Part shown: one piece after another, positions 24,590 to 47,485 of the stretch | How positions within the stretch are numbered: position 1 is the first letter of the stretch | Layout of the letters: each line of letters opens with the position of its first letter | Origin: Naegleria gruberi | Lineage: Eukaryota | Strand: one strand, 5' to 3' | Assembly: GCA_000004985.1 (NCBI GenBank) | Contig: GG738888.1 | Length of the DNA stretch: 64,000 nt | Translations under genes and position numbers: made by a program | Notes under the pieces: model-generated | Database searches by the model: none | Told to the model about the DNA's origin: nothing | What the model saw: only the letters and a program-made list of their open reading frames with translations

Positions 24590-25984
24590 NNNNNNNNNNN
24601 NNNNNNNNNNNNNNNNNNNNNNNNNNNNNNNNNNNNNNNNNNNNNNNNNNNNNNNNNNNNNNNNNNNNNNNNNNNNNNNNNNNNNNNNNNNNNNNNNNNN
24701 NNNNNNNNNNNNNNNNNNNNNNNNNNNNNNNNNNNNNNNNNNNNNNNNNNNNNNNNNNNNNNNNNNNNNNNNNNNNNNNNNNNNNNNNNNNNNNNNNNNN
24801 NNNNNNNNNNNNNNNNNNNNNNNNNNNNNNNNNNNNNNNNNNNNNNNNNNNNNNNNNNNNNNNNNNNNNNNNNNNNNNNNNNNNNNNNNNNNNNNNNNNN
24901 NNNNNNNNNNNNNNNNNNNNNNNNNNNNNNNNNNNNNNNNNNNNNNNNNNNNNNNNNNNNNNNNNNNNNNNNNNNNNNNNNNNNNNNNNNNNNNNNNNNN
25001 NNNNNNNNNNNNNNNNNNNNNNNNNNNNNNNNNNNNNNNNNNNNNNNNNNNNNNNNNNNNNNNNNNNNNNNNNNNNNNNNNNNNNNNNNNNNNNNNNNNN
25101 NNNNNNNNNNNNNNNNNNNNNNNNNNNNNNNNNNNNNNNNNNNNNNNNNNNNNNNNNNNNNNNNNNNNNNNNNNNNNNNNNNNNNNNNNNNNNNNNNNNN
25201 NNNNNNNNNNNNNNNNNNNNNNNNNNNNNNNNNNNNNNNNNNNNNNNNNNNNNNNNNNNNNNNNNNNNNNNNNNNNNNNNNNNNNNNNNNNNNNNNNNNN
25301 NNNNNNNNNNNNNNNNNNNNNNNNNNNNNNNNNNNNNNNNNNNNNNNNNNNNNNNNNNNNNNNNNNNNNNNNNNNNNNNNNNNNNNNNNNNNNNNNNNNN
25401 NNNNNNNNNNNNNNNNNNNNNNNNNNNNNNNNNNNNNNNNNNNNNNNNNNNNNNNNNNNNNNNNNNNNNNNNNNNNNNNNNNNNNNNNNNNNNNNNNNNN
25501 NNNNNNNNNNNNNNNNNNNNNNNNNNNNNNNNNNNNNNNNNNNNNNNNNNNNNNNNNNNNNNNNNNNNNNNNNNNNNNNNNNNNNNNNNNNNNNNNNNNN
25601 NNNNNNNNNNNNNNNNNNNNNNNNNNNNNNNNNNNNNNNNNNNNNNNNNNNNNNNNNNNNNNNNNNNNNNNNNNNNNNNNNNNNNNNNNNNNNNNNNNNN
25701 NNNNNNNNNNNNNNNNNNNNNNNNNNNNNNNNNNNNNNNNNNNNNNNNNNNNNNNNNNNNNNNNNNNNNNNNNNNNNNNNNNNNNNNNNNNNNNNNNNNN
25801 NNNNNNNNNNNNNNNNNNNNNNNNNNNNNNNNNNNNNNNNNNNNNNNNNNNNNNNNNNNNNNNNNNNNNNNNNNNNNNNNNNNNNNNNNNNNNNNNNNNN
25901 NNNNNNNNNNNNNNNNNNNNNNNNNNNNNNNNNNNNNNNNNNNNNNNNNNNNNNNNNNNNNNNNNNNNNNNNNNNNNNNNNNNN
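24590..25984. other. Assembly gap (1395 N)
   Basis: Contiguous run of n. ORFs composed of X across it are artefacts. Confidence 1.
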
Positions 25985-34858: not shown

Positions 34859-35269
34859 TTATCCGTCTTCTTCAATGTGATGGAGAAATAGTAATTTTAG
34901 GAGAGCTTTTCGTTGTTCGTTGTNNNNNNNNNNNNNNNNNNNNNNNNNNNNNNNNNNNNNNNNNNNNNNNNNNATTGAAACTCTTCTGTTTCTTAAAGTT
35001 TCGGATGATTTAGTTGCGACTGCATGCTGTTGATCCTGTCCATCGGCAGCTTGGTGTTGCTTAAGATGATATTGGTTCATTATTTTTGGTTGTTGATTGG
35101 TTTCGGCAAGATTACACTGGAAAGTTTGCATGGTTTCGGATTGTTGTGTTGGTGAAGGAAGTCGAAAGTGAACTTCATTTCTCTGAATCCCACTTTGAGG
35201 GTCTAAATTATTGTCTTCCAGACATGCACTAGAATCTAATGAGAAACTAGACGAAAGTTCATCATCCAT
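34859..35269 (-). CDS. Gln-rich hypothetical protein interrupted by a 50-N gap
   Basis: The ORF spans the N-run at 34924..34973. The C-terminus, KALLKLLFLHH, weakly resembles the family Leu-rich tail. The model is unreliable. Confidence 0.25.
   Translation of the reverse strand: MDDELSSSFSLDSSACLEDNNLDPQSGIQRNEVHFRLPSPTQQSETMQTFQCNLAETNQQPKIMNQYHLKQHQAADGQDQQHAVATKSSETLRNRRVSXXXXXXXXXXXXXXXXXXNEQRKALLKLLFLHHIEEDG
34924..34973. other. Assembly gap (50 N)
   Basis: Run of n. Confidence 1.
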
Positions 35270-35641
35270 TCTCTAAGAAAACCTCTTGGGAAGAATTTAC
35301 TTTTAATGTGTTGATTTGTTTTTTTCAAAGTGTTTTTATTGTAATACGAAAGGAACTTTGCGTTGCCAAACACCTAAACAATTTATGAAACCTGCCAAAC
35401 TGAAATTCTTGACCGAAGAATAGAATAATTTTATCTGAATGTGCTGAATAATGAAGTTAATGTTTGGCAGCCCCATTCCAATGTATTATGACAGGTTCGG
35501 TAACTTTGACAACTTCATTAGAATGTATTTAGTTTTCATAACCTCTCTATCCTAAATTGGTAATAGACAAATACGTTGAACAATAGCAATTGGTATAATA
35601 ATAACAACATTAAGAAGTTAACGAATTCGTTAGAAACAATT

Positions 35642-36196
35642 TTATTGATTATTCTTTGGGGGAATAAATTGACCAAACAAAGTTTCACTTAGAGAAAAAC
35701 CAGATTTCTGATAGAGAGCTTGAGCTTTCAGATTTTCATTCCTTACCAATAGACGAACACCTGCCATGTTTAAATTCTTTGCAATTTTCTTAGTTTCGTC
35801 CAGTAGAATACTAGCAATTCCACATCTCCTGAATTTTTCCCTCACAAACAATTCGTCCACATAGAGATAACCATTTTTCTTATTCAATTTTGGAAGAAAA
35901 CATAAACAAATAAATCCACACGCTTCTCTCTCATCATTTTCCACAATTAAGACCCAAAATGTATTGGAAATCATTCCAGTATTTTTCATGTTGTCGAGAA
36001 AGGATTCCAAATGAAGATTTGCATCTTCTTCCATTCGATTTTCCGACTCGAATTGTTCCTTTAATAATACAAGTAGATTTTCATGTAATTTGTTTTGGGT
36101 TGAGTGAATATTTTCATGGTTTGGATTAAGTGGTTGTAATTGATGTATTGTAAAGCTGTTTGATGACATTTTTTTTTGAAGAATTTTGTTGAACAA
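35642..36196 (-). CDS. GNAT family N-acetyltransferase
   Basis: Motif A region LYVDELFVREKFRRCGIASILLDETKKIA (R..G.A acetyl-CoA loop), then NENLKAQALYQKSGF. Confidence 0.65.
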   Translation of the reverse strand: MFNKILQKKMSSNSFTIHQLQPLNPNHENIHSTQNKLHENLLVLLKEQFESENRMEEDANLHLESFLDNMKNTGMISNTFWVLIVENDEREACGFICLCFLPKLNKKNGYLYVDELFVREKFRRCGIASILLDETKKIAKNLNMAGVRLLVRNENLKAQALYQKSGFSLSETLFGQFIPPKNNQ

Positions 36197-36430
36197 ATTT
36201 GTTGAATCTCATTTGCAATTATCATAATCAATTTGTACAATTTGCATTACTGTCGATATCACACAATGTATTTTTAATAAATATCATCAGATTCAGAGAA
36301 AAATTGAAACAAGTTGGCTTAATTTATTAAGGAATAGTTCTATGCTTAGTATTACTTAACAGCTCAACTATCAATTAAGCAGTATCGTTAATATGATTTC
36401 CGAAATTGAAAATAAAGTTAGAAAATTAAT

Positions 36431-38005
36431 TTATCTATTTGGTATGTGAGGTGTAAAGTCCAAATCTTGAACGTTATATTCAATCTTATGGATGGTTGTT
36501 TCATATCTATCACCATTCTTTGAAAAGAATGAATTATCCTTTACTCCAGAATAAGATGAATAGTCCACAATGGTGCTTCCCTCAGCATCTCCTGCAATAC
36601 AGAATGATCTGTCGAATGCTTTCAATAATTTATAATCTCCTTCACCTGCATCAGTTTCAAAATATCCTATCGAATTCAACCAGTGACAAAATTCATCCAA
36701 TGTTTTTCTATTCTCAAATATCATTGTATCCAATTTGGTAAATTCATTCTCGTAATCCAAATTTTGAATGAATGCCTTTAAAGTTTCAGTATAGTAGAAT
36801 TTTCTACTCGTGTTACCCTTCTTTAAATCGGAAAAGTAATTGTCAAAGGTCTTTCCACTTGGTCTACTCAATGAGAGAGCATCCAAAACTTGAGAGACAA
36901 AGTGTTGACAATTACAATCGAGTTGGCTATATGTCTTTTTAGCATTAAATGTACAACAAATATCTGTAATTTTCAAGAAGGCATCCATAATTTGATTCTT
37001 GGTTCTCAAAAAACCAAGATCAATAACAGCAATTGAATTGGATGATTCAATATTCTTATCAGTTCTAACACTAATCAGAGAGTTATTGTACCAATCAAAT
37101 TTCCACTCTCCAATCATGATTCCTGTATGGAGAATACCAAATTCAGTAGTAACAATCTTGGACAATACGCTTCTAATAAAATTATTTCCTTGCAATTCTG
37201 AAATGACCAATTTAACAGCAACATAAGGAGGCTTTTCCATCTTTCTTCTATTTGGATTTGCCAAAATTCTACTGCAAAATGTATTGTACAAGAATCTATC
37301 CTTGCATGTTAAATTTTGGGCATCCAAATCCAAATCACCAGTAAGATTAGCACTCTTGAATGATTTTCCTCTCTCATTGAGAGTCTTGTAATATTCAGAG
37401 AGATTCTTTTTACAATGTTCAATTCCTTGTTTCTCCCAATCATTAAGTTTTTCCTCATCAAATGGAGTTCTCGAATCAAAATCACTATCATCCGATGGTA
37501 AATGTACATTATTTGAATTAGTGCCAATATCACTCTGAGTTCCAGTCGTTGGAACAGAATCAAATTGATAAGCTGGATTATATCTCTGTTCCATTGCAGC
37601 AAAAGTATTCTTCCTACCAGAGCCATTCTCAATATCCTTTCTAATCTTGGCCTCAACCACTGAATCCACAAACGAACTCATACTTCCCTGATCAACATCA
37701 TATAATTTAGAAAGCCTTGCAATAATATATTGTTTTTCATCATCAATTGTTGAACGATCTCCGGTAACAATAGCCTTGGCCAAATCCTTAAAAACATGAC
37801 CATGAAACATTGTATTATTGATCAATAACTTCTCAATCAAGGAATTTTGATATTTAAATTCTCTCATCAGATTTATCAAATCATTATTATCACAATTATT
37901 AATTGGCTTATCAGTAATTGCTCGGGTTGGTACAGAATTTGCAGAATCGGAACCCTTTCCTACATTGAATGATTCGAGGGAATCTTGAGAAAAGTAATTG
38001 CCCAT
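36431..38005 (-). CDS. N-myristoylated (MGNYFSQ) LRAT/PLAAT-like (NlpC/P60 superfamily) domain protein, paralog 1
   Basis: Starts MG..(S). The central region FGILHTGIMIGEWKFDWYNNSLISV ... LDCNCQHFVSQVLDAL parallels PLAAT/LRAT H-box (HWAIYVGDGYVVHL) and the catalytic NCEHFV motif. Collinear with the 38853..40367 paralog. Confidence 0.5.
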   Translation of the reverse strand: MGNYFSQDSLESFNVGKGSDSANSVPTRAITDKPINNCDNNDLINLMREFKYQNSLIEKLLINNTMFHGHVFKDLAKAIVTGDRSTIDDEKQYIIARLSKLYDVDQGSMSSFVDSVVEAKIRKDIENGSGRKNTFAAMEQRYNPAYQFDSVPTTGTQSDIGTNSNNVHLPSDDSDFDSRTPFDEEKLNDWEKQGIEHCKKNLSEYYKTLNERGKSFKSANLTGDLDLDAQNLTCKDRFLYNTFCSRILANPNRRKMEKPPYVAVKLVISELQGNNFIRSVLSKIVTTEFGILHTGIMIGEWKFDWYNNSLISVRTDKNIESSNSIAVIDLGFLRTKNQIMDAFLKITDICCTFNAKKTYSQLDCNCQHFVSQVLDALSLSRPSGKTFDNYFSDLKKGNTSRKFYYTETLKAFIQNLDYENEFTKLDTMIFENRKTLDEFCHWLNSIGYFETDAGEGDYKLLKAFDRSFCIAGDAEGSTIVDYSSYSGVKDNSFFSKNGDRYETTIHKIEYNVQDLDFTPHIPNR

Positions 38006-38526
38006 CTCCGATGCTTGTTTTAAATATATTTAAATAAATAATAATAATTATAATATTATAATGTTGTTTGTGCTCTCTTGTTAGGAACAATGAATCGGTT
38101 GGTGCAGAGTTTGTGATTTTTTGTGTTTTTTCTTATTGATTTGATCTAATTAGAAGAGGAAGTAAACACGTGTTGGTTTTTTATGAGTTTTAATGAAAGA
38201 ATATTATCTTGACAAAAAAGTATCGATGTTCACGTTCTTTGAAACGTGATTCAAAGCTGTAGTTTGTTGTTTGACAGAAATGAAATGTGAATGCAGGATT
38301 GAAAATCATAAAATTACTCTTGTGCAATTTCTAGATATCCTCTACTTTGAACAAATTTTGGAAGATTTACAGAAGCAATAATTTTGGCTTGTTAATTTCA
38401 ATTCAAAAACCAAACAAAATTAATCTGAGGCTATTTTAAGAATAAATATAGAAGATAAGAGATTGATTTTACACCTCCTTATAGTAAAGACAAAATGGTA
38501 GCAGGAAATATACTAAAATAAAAAGT

Positions 38527-38607
38527 TGCAGAAGGTGGGATTTGAACCCACGAAGCTTGCGCAGTAGAACTTGAGTCTACCCCCTTTGACCACTCGGGAA
38601 CCCCTGC
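38527..38607 (-). tRNA. tRNA-Leu(CAA): tRNA-Leu (anticodon CAA), type II, no intron
   Basis: Minus strand: GCAGGGG-TT-CCC-GAGTGGTCAAA-GGG-G-GTAGA-CTCAAGT-TCTAC-(variable arm)-GTGGG-TTCAAAT-CCCAC-CTTCTGC-A. Acceptor, anticodon and T stems all pair. A T5 run lies 2 nt downstream at 38520-38524. Confidence 0.9.
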
Positions 38608-38852
38608 TTCACATTTATTATCTTTAAATATGTTCTTCGTAAGTATGATCATTGTAAAATGGAAAAAGATGAAGAAAAGAACAGCGAATGGTGAGTGTGG
38701 AAGATTGTGAATATTAATTTGAAGAAATTGAGATCATACTGATGCATTGAAATACAGAGTTTAAATGGTGACAGTCAAACTTATTAATATCAAAGGGGAA
38801 TGACAGATTGAACATGAATAATATTTTGGCAGTTTTTCATCTTTATTGATGT

Positions 38853-40367
38853 CTATCTTTTGAGGAAATATTTTGACAAGTCCAAATCCTTTACATTGTA
38901 CTTGATATTGGTAATACTGGTATCATCATGAAGACCAGATTGAGAAAAGAATGCATTCTCCTTCTTGAATCCTTCCACAGAATAGTCAACCACGACCAAT
39001 CCATCTCTTCCCTTACCAGCAATTACAAACGATCTATCAAATGATTTAAGCAATTGATAATCTTCCTTTCCTTCTTCTGTTGTAAAATGACCTAAATCCT
39101 TGATAAAGAAACAGAATTCATCAAGATCTTTTCTACTTTCGAATTTGATTGACTTCTTTTTCTTGTAAATTGAATCTTGAGCTTTTTGAATCTTGTCAAT
39201 TAAAGCTGGGCTAAAGTAGAATTTTCTTGCCATATCTCCCTTCTTTAAATTTTTAAAATACTTTTCAAAGCACTTGGATTTTGGAGTGACAAGAGAAAGT
39301 GCATCCAAAAGTTCCGAAACAAAGTGTTGGCAATTACAATTCAATTGACCGTACTCCATAGTGGCATTGTATTTACAAACAATGTCTGAAATTTTGAAGA
39401 ATGCACTCAAAATTAAATTTTGATCAATCAGAGATCCCAAATCAATAACAGCAATTGCATTTCCAGAGCCAATATTCTTTTCCTTTCTAACACTGACCAT
39501 TGAATTGTCGTACCAATCGAATTTCCACTCACCAATCAATAATCCAGTGTGGAGGAGGCCAAATTCTGTATTCACTACTTTTGAGACAATGGATCTATAA
39601 ATTTCATTTCCCTCAATTTCTGAAATGATCAACTTAACTTGCATATATGGCTCAGAAGTCAAAACTCTCCTGCTTGAATTACTCAAAATTGGAGCACAGA
39701 ATGTGTTGAACATGAAACGATCTTTGCAGACCATATTTTGAGCATCCACTTCCAAGTCACCTATCAATCCACAAGTTTCGAATTTCTTCTTCTTCTCCTT
39801 CAAAAATTCATAATATTTTACCAAATTCTTCTTGACCTTTTCAATTCCTCTCTTCTCCCACTCGTTCAATTTATCTTGATCGTATGCAGTTGAAATGTTA
39901 TAAAAAGTTTGAGGAGTGACACCTGGATCCTGAGTCTCTGAATGCAAACTTGCTGTTGTTGTTGGAATGGATGAAATATTAATTTTCTTACTTGATGCAT
40001 TCGACACATCCCTTTTAATCTTTGTAATAACCACATTCTCAATAAAACGTGATAGCAAACTTTCCGTGATGGCATAACGAGTGGCATATCTGCTAGCCAA
40101 TCGGTCCCTTTCGTCTTCAATTTTTGATTGATTCTCCTCCAGTATTGGTGCAACAAGTGCAGAGAATATACTTCCAGACATGTCTTTTTCCTTGATGACA
40201 CTGGCCAATTTATTGCTCTTATCCTCGAATTTATAGTGTCTCAGAAGGACGAGCAAATCTTCAGCATCACATTCAGTGATTGGTTTGTTTACTACTTGGC
40301 TAATATCCACAGTAGAGGATTCAAATGATGCAGGCTTGGAGTCAAAAGATGAAGGTTTGCCACCCAT
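38853..40367 (-). CDS. N-myristoylated (MGGKPSS) LRAT/PLAAT-like domain protein, paralog 2
   Basis: FGLLHTGLLIGEWKFDWYDNSMVSV ... LNCNCQHFVSELLDAL. Long blocks are shared with paralog 1: DLD.DAQN..CKDRF..NTFC, VKL.ISE..GN...RS..SK...TEFG.LHTG, CNCQHFVS..LDALSL, DEFC and YNV.DLD. Confidence 0.5.
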   Translation of the reverse strand: MGGKPSSFDSKPASFESSTVDISQVVNKPITECDAEDLLVLLRHYKFEDKSNKLASVIKEKDMSGSIFSALVAPILEENQSKIEDERDRLASRYATRYAITESLLSRFIENVVITKIKRDVSNASSKKINISSIPTTTASLHSETQDPGVTPQTFYNISTAYDQDKLNEWEKRGIEKVKKNLVKYYEFLKEKKKKFETCGLIGDLEVDAQNMVCKDRFMFNTFCAPILSNSSRRVLTSEPYMQVKLIISEIEGNEIYRSIVSKVVNTEFGLLHTGLLIGEWKFDWYDNSMVSVRKEKNIGSGNAIAVIDLGSLIDQNLILSAFFKISDIVCKYNATMEYGQLNCNCQHFVSELLDALSLVTPKSKCFEKYFKNLKKGDMARKFYFSPALIDKIQKAQDSIYKKKKSIKFESRKDLDEFCFFIKDLGHFTTEEGKEDYQLLKSFDRSFVIAGKGRDGLVVVDYSVEGFKKENAFFSQSGLHDDTSITNIKYNVKDLDLSKYFLKR

Positions 40368-40789: not shown

Positions 40790-41536
40790 TTAATTCTTGG
40801 CAGCAGTAGCAGAAGATGTAGCTTGTTCTGCTTCTTCTGGCTTACCCATCATACCTCTGAGTGAATCAATCATATCTAATTGTCTTCTGATGGTATTATT
40901 GTGTTGTCTTCTCAACTTTCTAGCAGAAATCCAAGCCTTTCTAAACTTTCTCAAATTACCAACTTCCTTCTCCAAAATAGCTTGATATTCCTTCAACTTG
41001 GCTGTAGCAGTCTCATAGGTTGTTTGTTGTTCTGTTGTTGTTGTGGATGATCTCTTCTCATATCGGGCCACATACTTTTTATAAATTCTTTGTGCCTTCT
41101 TGTAAGCCTTCTTCTTCTCAACAACCTTCTTATGAGTCTCCTTAACACGTCTGTTCAATTTTTTGTAGCGTTTTTCCAAGCGCGCCAAAGTCTTTCTCAA
41201 ACGTTCCTCAACACGAGTCAAGTGCATGTGCAAGGATTTGCTCTCCTCCGTTGCCAAATATTTGGATGATGAACCTGATGATGAGAATTTCTTCAATAAT
41301 TTAATGAGGGTCTTTTTCATGCGTTTTTGAGAGCGGATGGTTCGTTTCTTGTGGACCACACGAATATTTTCCTTTTTTGCCTCCACAAAATTTATTGTTG
41401 CTGTTGTAGAGAGAAGCACGACCATCAGGAAGAGAGCAATGGTGAGGAAGGTCAAGATGAAAAACTTGTTGCTTCTCATTGTGATGCTCTGACTGCCGTT
41501 GGATGAGATGTGATGTGGCAGCGAGGTGATAATCAT
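40790..41536 (-). CDS. Hypothetical signal-anchored basic coiled-coil protein
   Basis: The internal start MRSNKFFILTFLTIALFLMVVLL (alternative start at 41479) is followed by a K/R-rich heptad-like region. Confidence 0.4.
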   Translation of the reverse strand: MIITSLPHHISSNGSQSITMRSNKFFILTFLTIALFLMVVLLSTTATINFVEAKKENIRVVHKKRTIRSQKRMKKTLIKLLKKFSSSGSSSKYLATEESKSLHMHLTRVEERLRKTLARLEKRYKKLNRRVKETHKKVVEKKKAYKKAQRIYKKYVARYEKRSSTTTTEQQTTYETATAKLKEYQAILEKEVGNLRKFRKAWISARKLRRQHNNTIRRQLDMIDSLRGMMGKPEEAEQATSSATAAKN

Positions 41537-42930: not shown

Positions 42931-43001
42931 TCGGGTGTGGTATAGTGGTAGCATTCCAGACTGTCACTCTGGCGACCCGGGTTCAATTCCCGGCACTCGA
43001 G
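42931..43001 (+). tRNA. tRNA-Asp(GTC): tRNA-Asp (anticodon GTC)
   Basis: TCGGGTG-TG-GTATAGTGGTAGCAT-T-CCAGA-CTGTCAC-TCTGG-CGAC-CCGGG-TTCAATT-CCCGG-CACTCGA-G. Nearly collinear with metazoan tRNA-Asp. A T5 run lies at 43008-43012. Confidence 0.9.
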
Positions 43002-44375: not shown

Positions 44376-46527
44376 TTAATGGTAAACATCACGAATGGAT
44401 TTAATTCTTATATTGGAAATGAATTGATCCAAATTTTGAATTCTTAATTGATGATTTAAAGTGGAGAAGCGAATAGTTTCTGATCTTTCTTTCAACATCA
44501 TTAGTCCATTCCTGTCAAATCTTCCTGAATTTCCATCATTTTCTAACCAAACATAAAAGGCAACTTGATCTGAAATCAAATCAAATTGAACCACTGTTCC
44601 ATCCTCCAATAATTTTGCATTGATAATTTTAAAGTTTGTTTTTGGCAAATCAGTGACAAGTGCCAATGGTGAGAGGAAGTGAACATTTTCAGAGATAATC
44701 TCATTAGTAGAATAGTCGGTCAAGGACATGTGGACAAAGCAACGATTCGAAAGGAAGCACAAACTTTCTAGGATGAGCATTTCACTTTCCTTTGCAAAAA
44801 TCATTTGTCCAGAGAGTGGTTGAATGGAAAGGTTTGGGAAATTCAAAGTCTTTTTGATTTCACCATTCGAATATTGAATTATTTTCACAGTGACTGATGC
44901 TGTCAATTGTTTCATTCGATCAGTGGTGACAAAAATCTTAAACCATCCTCCCTGTTCGTAGGATAACACAAGACTCTCTGAGAAGAAATCCTTAACAAAG
45001 TAATGCATCATCTTCCATTTTAATCCATATTCCAAAGACGCCCAGTCCACAGTTTGCCAAATCGAATTCAATTGCCAATATAGGGCTCCATATGTTTGAA
45101 CATTTGGATCATCCCTTAGAGATCTGTAATATTCAGTTTGAGCTTTCATGCAGAGAGCTTGCGAGCATTGAGACAAGTAAATGAAATTTTCAAAATTTCC
45201 ATATAAATTATCAAATTTGAAATGATTTCCTATTTGGAAGAGTATTTGATTGGTACCGTCTGGATGGTGTTGTCTATGATTCATTAGTGTGGAATTATAG
45301 AACCAATCCTGGGCCATACTCACAGATTTGAAAGTTTGTAATGAGGCAAACGATTGATGTCCATACTCAGACATGAATCTGGCTCTTGGGAAATTATCCA
45401 CGTTGGTACAAACTGTACTGTAATCATAATAGTGAACATCTCCCAATGAGGTAGAGTAAGGATTAAGCCAATATCCAACGTATGGCTCTTCAGAAATTAC
45501 TCCCTTTGAAGGGCTTGATGGCCAGAATGGTCTTGAACTATCCACTTGAAGAAGATTTCTCCTCACCGTCTCGAAATATAATGTTCCATAATCGACAATG
45601 TATCTCATCTTGTTTGTGTTTGAATTAATCACTGGCGAGTACCAAGTATCTCCCCACAGAGAGGCCTCATTCTCATTACTTCCACTCCACATGATAATTG
45701 ATGGATGGTGCATCAATCGAGTTGCTTGTTGTTGAATTTCCTTTGAAATACTTTGTAGGAATAGTTCAGTTCTTGGATAGGTAGCACATGCAAACATGAA
45801 TTCTTGCCAAACCAATATTCCCTTCTCATCACAAAAATCATAGAAGGAATCTCTTTCAAAATTTCCACCTCCCCAAATCCTCAAAGTATTTTGATTGGAT
45901 TCTATGAAGGAATCGAGTAAATTTCTCAAATCTTGGTCGCTCACTCTTTCAACAAATGAATCTGGAGGAATGTAATTGGAACCTTTGGCAAATACTGGAA
46001 TTCCATTAATTTCAAAATAGAATGATTTGCTTGGATTGTTGATTGGATCAGTTTCTTGGATTGGCTTTTGAATTATTTTCACTTGTCTGAAAGCAATTCG
46101 TTTTTGTAAAGTGTCGTGGAATGATTGACTGGTGAGTGAGGCTTTCACTTGATAGAGAGGTTGAGACCCATAGCCAACTGGATACCATAATTGAACATTT
46201 TGGCAGGGAGTTGTTAATTCGAATTGTAAAAATCCATTCGAAATTTCACATTGATTGATGTTTACGATTTGAGAATTGGAGCAAATGGAATTTGATGAGG
46301 AATCTTCAATGTTCACTGAAATTTTGATTTGTTTTGGTAAATTAATCTCTGATACTACTTGAATGATGAAAGTGGAATTGATTTTGAACGTATTCGAAAG
46401 TGTTGGAATAATTTCTGCTCCGTTTCTTTTTGGAATAATATTAGATACTGGAAATGTTTCAATTCTCAAATCTTTCAATGTTAGAGAATTATAAACTGTT
46501 ATCAACTTGACTTGTTTCCAAATTCCT
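44376..46527 (-). CDS. Beta-mannosidase (glycoside hydrolase family 2), exon 2
   Basis: GH2/beta-mannosidase blocks: [53 protein letters not shown]. The frame is open upstream to a CAATAG acceptor at 46528-46529. Confidence 0.8.
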
Positions 46528-47412: not shown

Positions 47413-47485
47413 GCTGGCGTAGCTCAGTCGGTAGAGCGTTGGTCTAATAAGCCATTGGTCGCCGGTTCGATCCCGTCCGTCAGCA
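47413..47485 (+). tRNA. tRNA-Ile(AAT): tRNA-Ile (anticodon AAT)
   Basis: GCTGGCG-TA-GCTC-AGTCGGTA-GAGC-G-TTGGT-CTAATAA-GCCAT-TGGTC-GCCGG-TTCGATC-CCGTC-CGTCAGC-A. Closely parallels eukaryotic tRNA-Ile(AAU). There is one T-stem mismatch. T-runs follow at 47491-94 and 47498-47502. Confidence 0.85.

Follow-up and report, generated by a model that had tools for sequence, protein, structure and literature searches.

The window, a 64,000-nucleotide stretch of contig GG738888.1 of Naegleria gruberi (assembly GCA_000004985.1), carries on its minus strand two uninterrupted open reading frames (ORFs) of 524 and 504 amino acids (proteins P0001 and P0002), referred to here as gene 1 and gene 2, with a tRNA-Leu(CAA) gene between them. 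Both encode proteins with a His motif followed by a Cys motif, and their family membership, targeting and probable activity are the subject of this analysis. The features of the locus are as follows.

36431..38005, minus strand: gene 1 (P0001, NAEGRDRAFT_80841), uninterrupted ORF, 524 amino acids
37988..38005, minus strand: N-terminal MGNYFS of gene 1, predicted N-myristoylation signal (Gly2, Asn3, Ser6), from the sequence and the family pattern
37691..37912, minus strand: SAM-like helical region of gene 1, about residues 32-105, tentative
36572..37249, minus strand: family core of gene 1, residues 253-478
38527..38607, minus strand: tRNA-Leu(CAA), between both paralogs (ARAGORN; Rfam RF00005, 48.7 bits)
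38853..40367, minus strand: gene 2 (P0002), uninterrupted ORF, 504-amino-acid paralog with the layout of gene 1
40350..40367, minus strand: N-terminal MGGKPS of gene 2, predicted N-myristoylation signal (Gly2, Ser6), from the sequence and the family pattern
38994..39671, minus strand: family core of gene 2, residues 233-458, from the BLASTP alignment and the motif positions

Both ORFs correspond to intronless gene models that are already public. The 524-residue product is 100% identical, at full coverage, to N. gruberi NAEGRDRAFT_80841, which bears the UniRef name "PPPDE domain-containing protein", and the 504-residue product is a public N. gruberi 'predicted protein' of the same length. Since both ORFs match N. 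gruberi proteins, the window is nuclear DNA of this species. The two products are 44% identical over 517 aligned residues (BLASTP, E 7e-153), which confirms that the genes are paralogs, as had been proposed in the initial annotation. The latter had also described long identical blocks; such blocks exist, but the longest of them, IGEWKFDWY, CNCQHFVS and IAVIDLG, span only nine, eight and seven residues, so that this wording was generous.

Active-site motifs and family assignment

In both proteins, an HTG..IGEWKFDWY stretch is followed by CNCQHFVS, with a His-to-Cys spacing of 73 residues, as the initial annotation had recognized. In gene 1, HTGIMIGEWKFDWY begins at His293 (positions 37127-37129) and CNCQHFVS at Cys364, the catalytic candidate being Cys366 (36908-36910). 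The equivalent residues in gene 2 are His273 (39549-39551) and Cys346 (39330-39332).

The conservation of these motifs was determined across 152 family cores. Asn354, Tyr359 (36929-36931), Asn365 and Phe369 were present in all 152, His293 in 150, Asp/Glu304 (His+11) and Cys366 in 148 each, Gln367 in 144 and Asp329 in 143, and the residue at His+12 (position 305) was Trp or Phe in 150 cores (132 and 18, respectively). Since His293, Tyr359, Asn365, Cys366 and Phe369 are kept in 148–152 of the 152 cores, the motifs cannot be attributed to chance. This nearly invariant set of His, acid, Tyr and Asn-Cys is the pattern that would be expected of active enzymes. It also has the permuted order of PPPDE1, with His preceding Cys and Tyr at Cys-7, the catalytic centre of PPPDE1 being formed by His38, Tyr101 and Cys108 (PMC9012467).

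The initial annotation had read the same motifs as the signature of LRAT/PLAAT enzymes. LRAT-type enzymes employ a Cys-His-His catalytic triad (PMC10318531), and such a triad is absent here: the His+12 position is occupied by Trp or Phe, as stated above, and no second invariant His was found across the 152 cores. The His inside NCQHF is a His in 63 cores and an Asp in 43 (family motif NCQ[H/D/Q/T/N]F) and, judged by this replacement, is not catalytic. Although NCQHF resembles the NCEHF of LRAT-type enzymes in both proteins, PPPDE proteins share such a motif (NCNTF/NCNHF), and it therefore does not discriminate between the two families.

Profile searches were in line with a relationship to PPPDE. 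The sole Pfam match of the gene 1 protein was PF05903 (PPPDE, Peptidase_C97; E 7.5e-4, 19.8 bits), covering residues 264-378 and profile positions 3-122 of 151, and neither window protein matched Pfam LRAT (PF04970; gathering score 24.3 bits) at E values up to 10. A match of the gene 2 protein to CdiI_3 (E 0.14) was rejected as chance. An N. gruberi paralog of 893 amino acids (P0004), which combines a protein kinase domain with two copies of the PPPDE-like domain, exceeded the PPPDE threshold (43.4 vs. 29.2 bits), whereas its LRAT score stayed below the respective one (23.9 vs. 24.3 bits) and was confined to 33 residues in the vicinity of the Cys motif. Out of 107 family members, 16 matched PPPDE at E≤0.01 (best 3.4e-5), one matched LRAT (E 0.0059) and one TseH.

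The family core was also compared, by running hhalign locally, with alignments built from DESI1 and PLAAT3 homologs, both of them shallow and restricted to vertebrates. Against DESI1, 113 columns were aligned with 88% probability (E 3e-6), from the first β-strand through the His to the Cys helix, pairing VKLVISEL with VKLYVYDL, the His with His38 and NCQHF with NCNTF. Against PLAAT3, the alignment comprised only 18 columns around Y…NCxHF (66% probability, E 5.8e-05). Comparisons of hidden Markov models (HMMs) with sequences were weak in both directions, with a best value of 19 bits for DESI1 vs. 10 bits for PLAAT3, and hence showed only a slight preference for DESI1.

The full gene 1 protein was modelled by AlphaFold2 (AF2) with an overall predicted local distance difference test (pLDDT) value of 75.5, rising to approximately 85–95 over residues 180-475, and residues 250-480 alone gave a pLDDT of 83.8 and a predicted template modelling score of 0.81. 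In Foldseek searches against the PDB, PPPDE1 (3ebq) and DeSI-1 (2wp7) came out on top, both with a probability of 0.99, and the PDB listing contained no PLAAT or LRAT structure. The structural ranking was headed by DeSI-1 (2wp7, 25% identity) at 9.8, followed by TseH (7.8), CLN5 (7.1), PLAAT4 (6.8), YiiX (6.3) and BcPPNE (5.8). Each of these six proteins belongs to the NlpC/P60 superfamily and has a papain-like domain with a circular permutation, and the predicted fold agrees with the papain-like NlpC/P60 fold anticipated by the initial annotation.

Taken together, the proteins are closest to PPPDE/DeSI and more distantly related to LRAT/PLAAT. Neither protein has a C-terminal hydrophobic anchor, the highest 19-residue Kyte-Doolittle means (1.28 and 1.46) lying inside the catalytic core. 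With no Pfam LRAT match, a profile likeness of 18 columns, no second triad His and no such anchor, the proteins are not members of LRAT/PLAAT, since three defining features of that family were looked for and found to be absent. The initial LRAT idea was thus plausible but wrong, and the assignment is corrected to PPPDE/DeSI, within which the proteins constitute a divergent subfamily, expanded in this lineage, that scores below the Pfam PPPDE threshold and has an extra module and an architecture of its own.

Compared with PPPDE/DeSI proteins proper (PF05903; human DESI1/PPPDE2 and DESI2/PPPDE1; PDB 2wp7 and 3ebq), the family shares the permuted papain fold with His before Cys, the HT(G/S) following the His, the NCxxF Cys motif, Tyr at Cys-7 and the alignable N-terminal strand. 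It differs in that identity is only 23–25%, both window proteins remain under the Pfam gathering score, the Cys motif is NCQ[HD]F rather than NCN[HT]F, an acid is conserved at His+11, and a conserved module of ~100 residues follows the Cys helix (F430, H/R433, D437, LLK, DR). Further, the proteins are approximately three times longer, carry an MG signal and a SAM-like region, and have named members in Heterolobosea only. The remaining structural neighbours are less similar: CLN5 (6r99), a cysteine-based S-depalmitoylase with 13% identity, is a glycoprotein of the lysosome whose additional domains are unrelated, and the permuted NlpC/P60 proteins TseH (6v98), YiiX (2if6) and BcPPNE (3kw0), with 9–13% identity, are bacterial proteins that are secreted or have no known function and lack eukaryotic targeting modules.

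Family range, domain layout and N-terminal signal

A search of 1.84 billion cluster representatives with the family profile returned 1116 matches with E≤1e-3, of which 647 reached E≤1e-10 and 186 reached E≤1e-30. The region common to the family corresponds to profile positions ~235-460; many members are only 20–25% identical overall. When 30 relatives were looked up, all 15 that had a species name belonged to Heterolobosea (Naegleria lovaniensis, N. fowleri, Willaertia magna, Acrasis kona and Pharyngomonas kirbyi), and the rest were metagenome, Logan or MMETSP sequences. The closest matches came from N. gruberi, N. fowleri, N. lovaniensis and W. magna. Domains fused to the core in relatives comprised protein kinase (P0004, P0084), PX together with SAM (P0012), PH and SAM. 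The scan revealed no relatives in viral contigs, and a giant-virus origin of the metagenomic members is therefore without support. A literature search on PPPDE in Naegleria yielded no more than a general review. The family is large, uncharacterised and apparently centred on Heterolobosea; hence, the two genes are no isolated oddities, but belong to a broad group with a conserved N-myristoylation signal and a C-terminal module of its own.

Some paralogs are much larger (P0019–P0021, 941–1778 amino acids), and the largest, P0019 of N. lovaniensis (1778 amino acids), contains three stretches matched by the profile, with no Pfam match at E≤0.01. A metagenomic member of 1001 amino acids (P0098 / P0155) has an intein-like insertion just past the conserved core, comprising Hom_end_hint (E 2e-30) and a homing-endonuclease domain (E 4.8e-18), which is unusual in a eukaryote-type protein.

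The gene 1 protein is laid out as an MG N-terminus, a SAM-like region, a helical linker, the PPPDE-like catalytic domain and the family-specific C-terminal module. Residues ~32-105 may be a divergent SAM domain, and residues ~129-175 are predicted to be disordered. The PPPDE-like permuted papain domain (~260-380) contains His293, Asp304, Tyr359 and Cys366, and the C-terminal module (~380-475) contains F430, R433, D437, LLK460-462 and D465-R466. Of the two extensions previously described as large and novel, the N-terminal one may thus be a divergent form of a known domain. The C-terminal module of ~100 residues is specific to the family.

The proteins begin with MGNYFSQ (gene 1) and MGGKPSS (gene 2), both with Gly2 and Ser6, and fit the PROSITE PS00008-type pattern (Met-Gly, a small uncharged residue at position 3 and Ser, Thr or a small residue at position 6). 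The start MG..(S/P)S given in the initial annotation fits gene 2, but not exactly gene 1, which has Phe5. Among 136 relatives with apparently complete N-termini, 51 start with MG (binomial p ~1e-24 against an assumed background of 7%). Of these MG starters, 31 have Ser6 and 36 have N, Q or S at position 3; the full pattern is fitted by 33 of the 136. As the N-terminal sequence around the signal is otherwise unconserved in the family, its retention is strong indirect evidence of N-myristoylation as a predicted family-wide trait, and the site proposed initially remains plausible. Naegleria is assumed to possess an N-myristoyltransferase. Literature searches found nothing on the Naegleria enzyme and nothing relevant joining PPPDE with myristoylation.

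Proposed activity and competing explanations

We consider it likely that these paralogs, whose divergence is old (see below), encode cytosolic, N-myristoylated, multi-domain Cys hydrolases, the catalytic domain of which has a divergent PPPDE/DeSI-type (MEROPS C97-like), circularly permuted papain fold. By homology, Cys366 would serve as the nucleophile that attacks the carbonyl of a thioester, ester or isopeptide bond, and His293 as the general base. The orientation of His293 is probably set by Asp/Glu304 on the adjacent strand, and Tyr359, which occupies the place of PPPDE1 Tyr101, would help to build the active site. After removal of the initiator Met, Gly2 would be myristoylated and the enzyme brought to membranes, the SAM-like region probably serving self-association or partner binding, and the C-terminal module would pack on the catalytic domain and probably shape the substrate site.

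The substrate is the least certain element of this proposal. The candidate bonds, on proteins close to the membrane, are acyl thioesters, whose cleavage amounts to protein S-deacylation, and isopeptide bonds. S-deacylation is slightly ahead because PPPDE1 and PPPDE2 catalyze it in vitro and because of the signals for membrane targeting and the fusion of relatives to PX and PH domains; a PLAAT-like reaction on phospholipids is the least likely of the substrate classes. PPPDE1 and PPPDE2 were originally regarded as deSUMOylases or deubiquitinases (PMC10318531). In vitro, PPPDE1 and PPPDE2 show weak peptidase but strong thioesterase (S-depalmitoylase) activity (PMC9012467), and many UniRef entries of DESI1 are now named palmitoyl-protein hydrolase.

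Several observations weigh against the proposal of N-myristoylated PPPDE/DeSI-type hydrolases. Besides the shallowness of the alignments used in hhalign, the PF05903 score of the gene 1 protein (19.8 bits) is below the gathering score of 29.2 bits, no PF05903 match was obtained for the gene 2 protein, and the HMM-to-sequence scores against DESI1 (≤19 bits) mark the family as remote from canonical PPPDE. Searches of PDB chains, both with the gene 1 sequence (phmmer) and with a profile, did not retrieve a PPPDE structure; phmmer gave no match at all, and the profile, built from 13 sequences, matched only EAF1 and a phage repressor, which were dismissed as spurious, low-complexity matches. With regard to targeting, the N. 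fowleri and N. lovaniensis orthologs begin with MGQSNW and MGQSYW, with no Ser or Thr at position 6, and neither a polybasic stretch nor a nearby Cys was found as a second membrane signal. Finally, what PPPDE enzymes do biochemically is itself contested, with deSUMOylase, deubiquitinase and depalmitoylase functions under debate.

A possible but less probable explanation is that the proteins are classical DeSI isopeptidases, which would strip membrane-associated substrates of SUMO, ubiquitin or another ubiquitin-like modifier and would not act on acyl groups. The closest solved structures, DeSI-1 and PPPDE1, fit this explanation, these having been described as deSUMOylase and deubiquitinase (PMC10318531), and the SAM and kinase fusions in relatives would suit a role in signalling. 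However, the balance of peptidase and thioesterase activities in PPPDE1 and PPPDE2 (PMC9012467) argues in the other direction, Pfam recognised no ubiquitin- or SUMO-binding element in the proteins, and at 23–25% identity to DeSI-1, with a differing region past the Cys helix, specificity is not transferable. That the proteins are LRAT/PLAAT-type lipid enzymes, in which a membrane-bound Cys-His-His enzyme forms an acyl-enzyme from phospholipid, followed by transfer or hydrolysis (acyltransferase or phospholipase A1/2), is improbable. They share with this family (PF04970; PLAAT3 and PLAAT4, PDB 7zot) the superfamily, the permuted His-to-Cys order, an NC(E/Q)HF-like motif, Tyr at Cys-7 as in PLAAT3 and an expected membrane association, and one or two members have the sub-threshold LRAT matches mentioned above (23.9 vs. 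24.3 bits; E 0.0059). Predicted membrane targeting would also suit a lipid substrate, as would the hydrophobic S1 pockets found in permuted NlpC/P60 enzymes, including PPPDE1 (PMC3142127). Against it stand the failure of either protein to match Pfam LRAT, the brief hhalign likeness around the Cys, the missing second triad His, with Trp or Phe at His+12 and the conserved acid at His+11, the unconserved His of NCQHF and the lack of a C-terminal transmembrane anchor, in place of which membrane targeting would be achieved via N-myristate.

The proteins might also be catalytically dead scaffolds that merely keep the papain-like fold, since the family lies under Pfam thresholds and its activity is a prediction. 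This is highly improbable, given that His, Tyr, Asn-Cys and the acid are kept in 148–152 of 152 divergent members, many of them only 20–25% identical.

A broader extension of the hydrolase proposal, which we regard as rather doubtful, is that Heterolobosea expanded a distinct PPPDE-like branch of thiol hydrolases to hundreds of paralogs, constituting a major membrane-proximal 'eraser' system, e.g. their main cysteine-based protein S-deacylases, which would recognise substrates through a module of its own and lack an equivalent in animals, fungi or plants. Its typical member would combine an N-myristoyl signal, SAM, the PPPDE-like core and the C-terminal module unique to it, in some cases with PX, PH or kinase domains attached. 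Should the family turn out to consist of membrane-associated S-deacylases or isopeptidases, the recently proposed class of cysteine-based depalmitoylases (CLN5, PPPDE1/2) would be enlarged by it. It would also indicate a layer of signalling specific to this lineage in Naegleria, the genus of the pathogen N. fowleri. The domain-level annotation was already public; the subfamily features and the expansion are new, and represent a refinement of annotation rather than a surprise.

History and neighbours of the gene pair

Being only 44% identical, the two genes are old paralogs. A recent tandem duplication was rejected, since this value compares with 79% identity between the gene 2 protein and its ortholog P0005, encoded in the Logan assembly SRR21279712 of a related Naegleria. 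The contig in question shows ~80% nucleotide identity and is collinear with the window on both flanks, but lacks a block of ~3.6 kb (window ~35270-38850; contig site 2456-2982) that contains the tRNA-Leu(CAA), the 524-residue gene and a GNAT ORF, and no tRNA was found on it. On this comparison, the three genes behave as a single insertion or deletion block next to the tRNA gene, the comparison consisting of one short contig from which loss and translocation are indistinguishable. In N. lovaniensis, the closest homolog occurs as a single copy and has other neighbours. Together with the absence of the block from the SRR21279712 contig, this indicates that the tandem arrangement is not conserved. 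The position of the tRNA, previously taken as a clue to the age of the duplication, is uninformative in this respect, as the related contig lacks it along with gene 1 and the GNAT ORF as one block. The tRNA, directly 3´ of which lies a T-run (TTTTT), is a neighbour and no functional part of the enzymes.

The window is AT-rich (~33% GC), with four dispersed tRNA genes and two assembly gaps, and contains no copies of the gene family beyond the two described. The gaps are runs of N at 24590-25984 and 34924-34973, the second of which breaks ORFs just downstream of the GNAT gene. The GNAT ORF itself (184 amino acids, 35642-36196, minus strand) lies directly downstream of gene 1 and encodes a GNAT-family acetyltransferase (Pfam Acetyltransf_1, E 3.6e-15); it is listed with a TTG start, the true start probably being an internal ATG. 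Upstream of gene 2, a 248-residue Lys/Arg-rich protein (40790-41536, minus strand) has an N-terminal hydrophobic segment and no Pfam match, and is syntenic in the related Naegleria contig (positions 15-533 there). Further along, a 709-residue ORF (44376-46505, minus strand) with GH2 TIM-barrel and mannosidase Ig-like domains looks like a β-mannosidase, and lies near tRNA-Asp(GTC) (42931-43001) and tRNA-Ile(AAT) (47413-47485).

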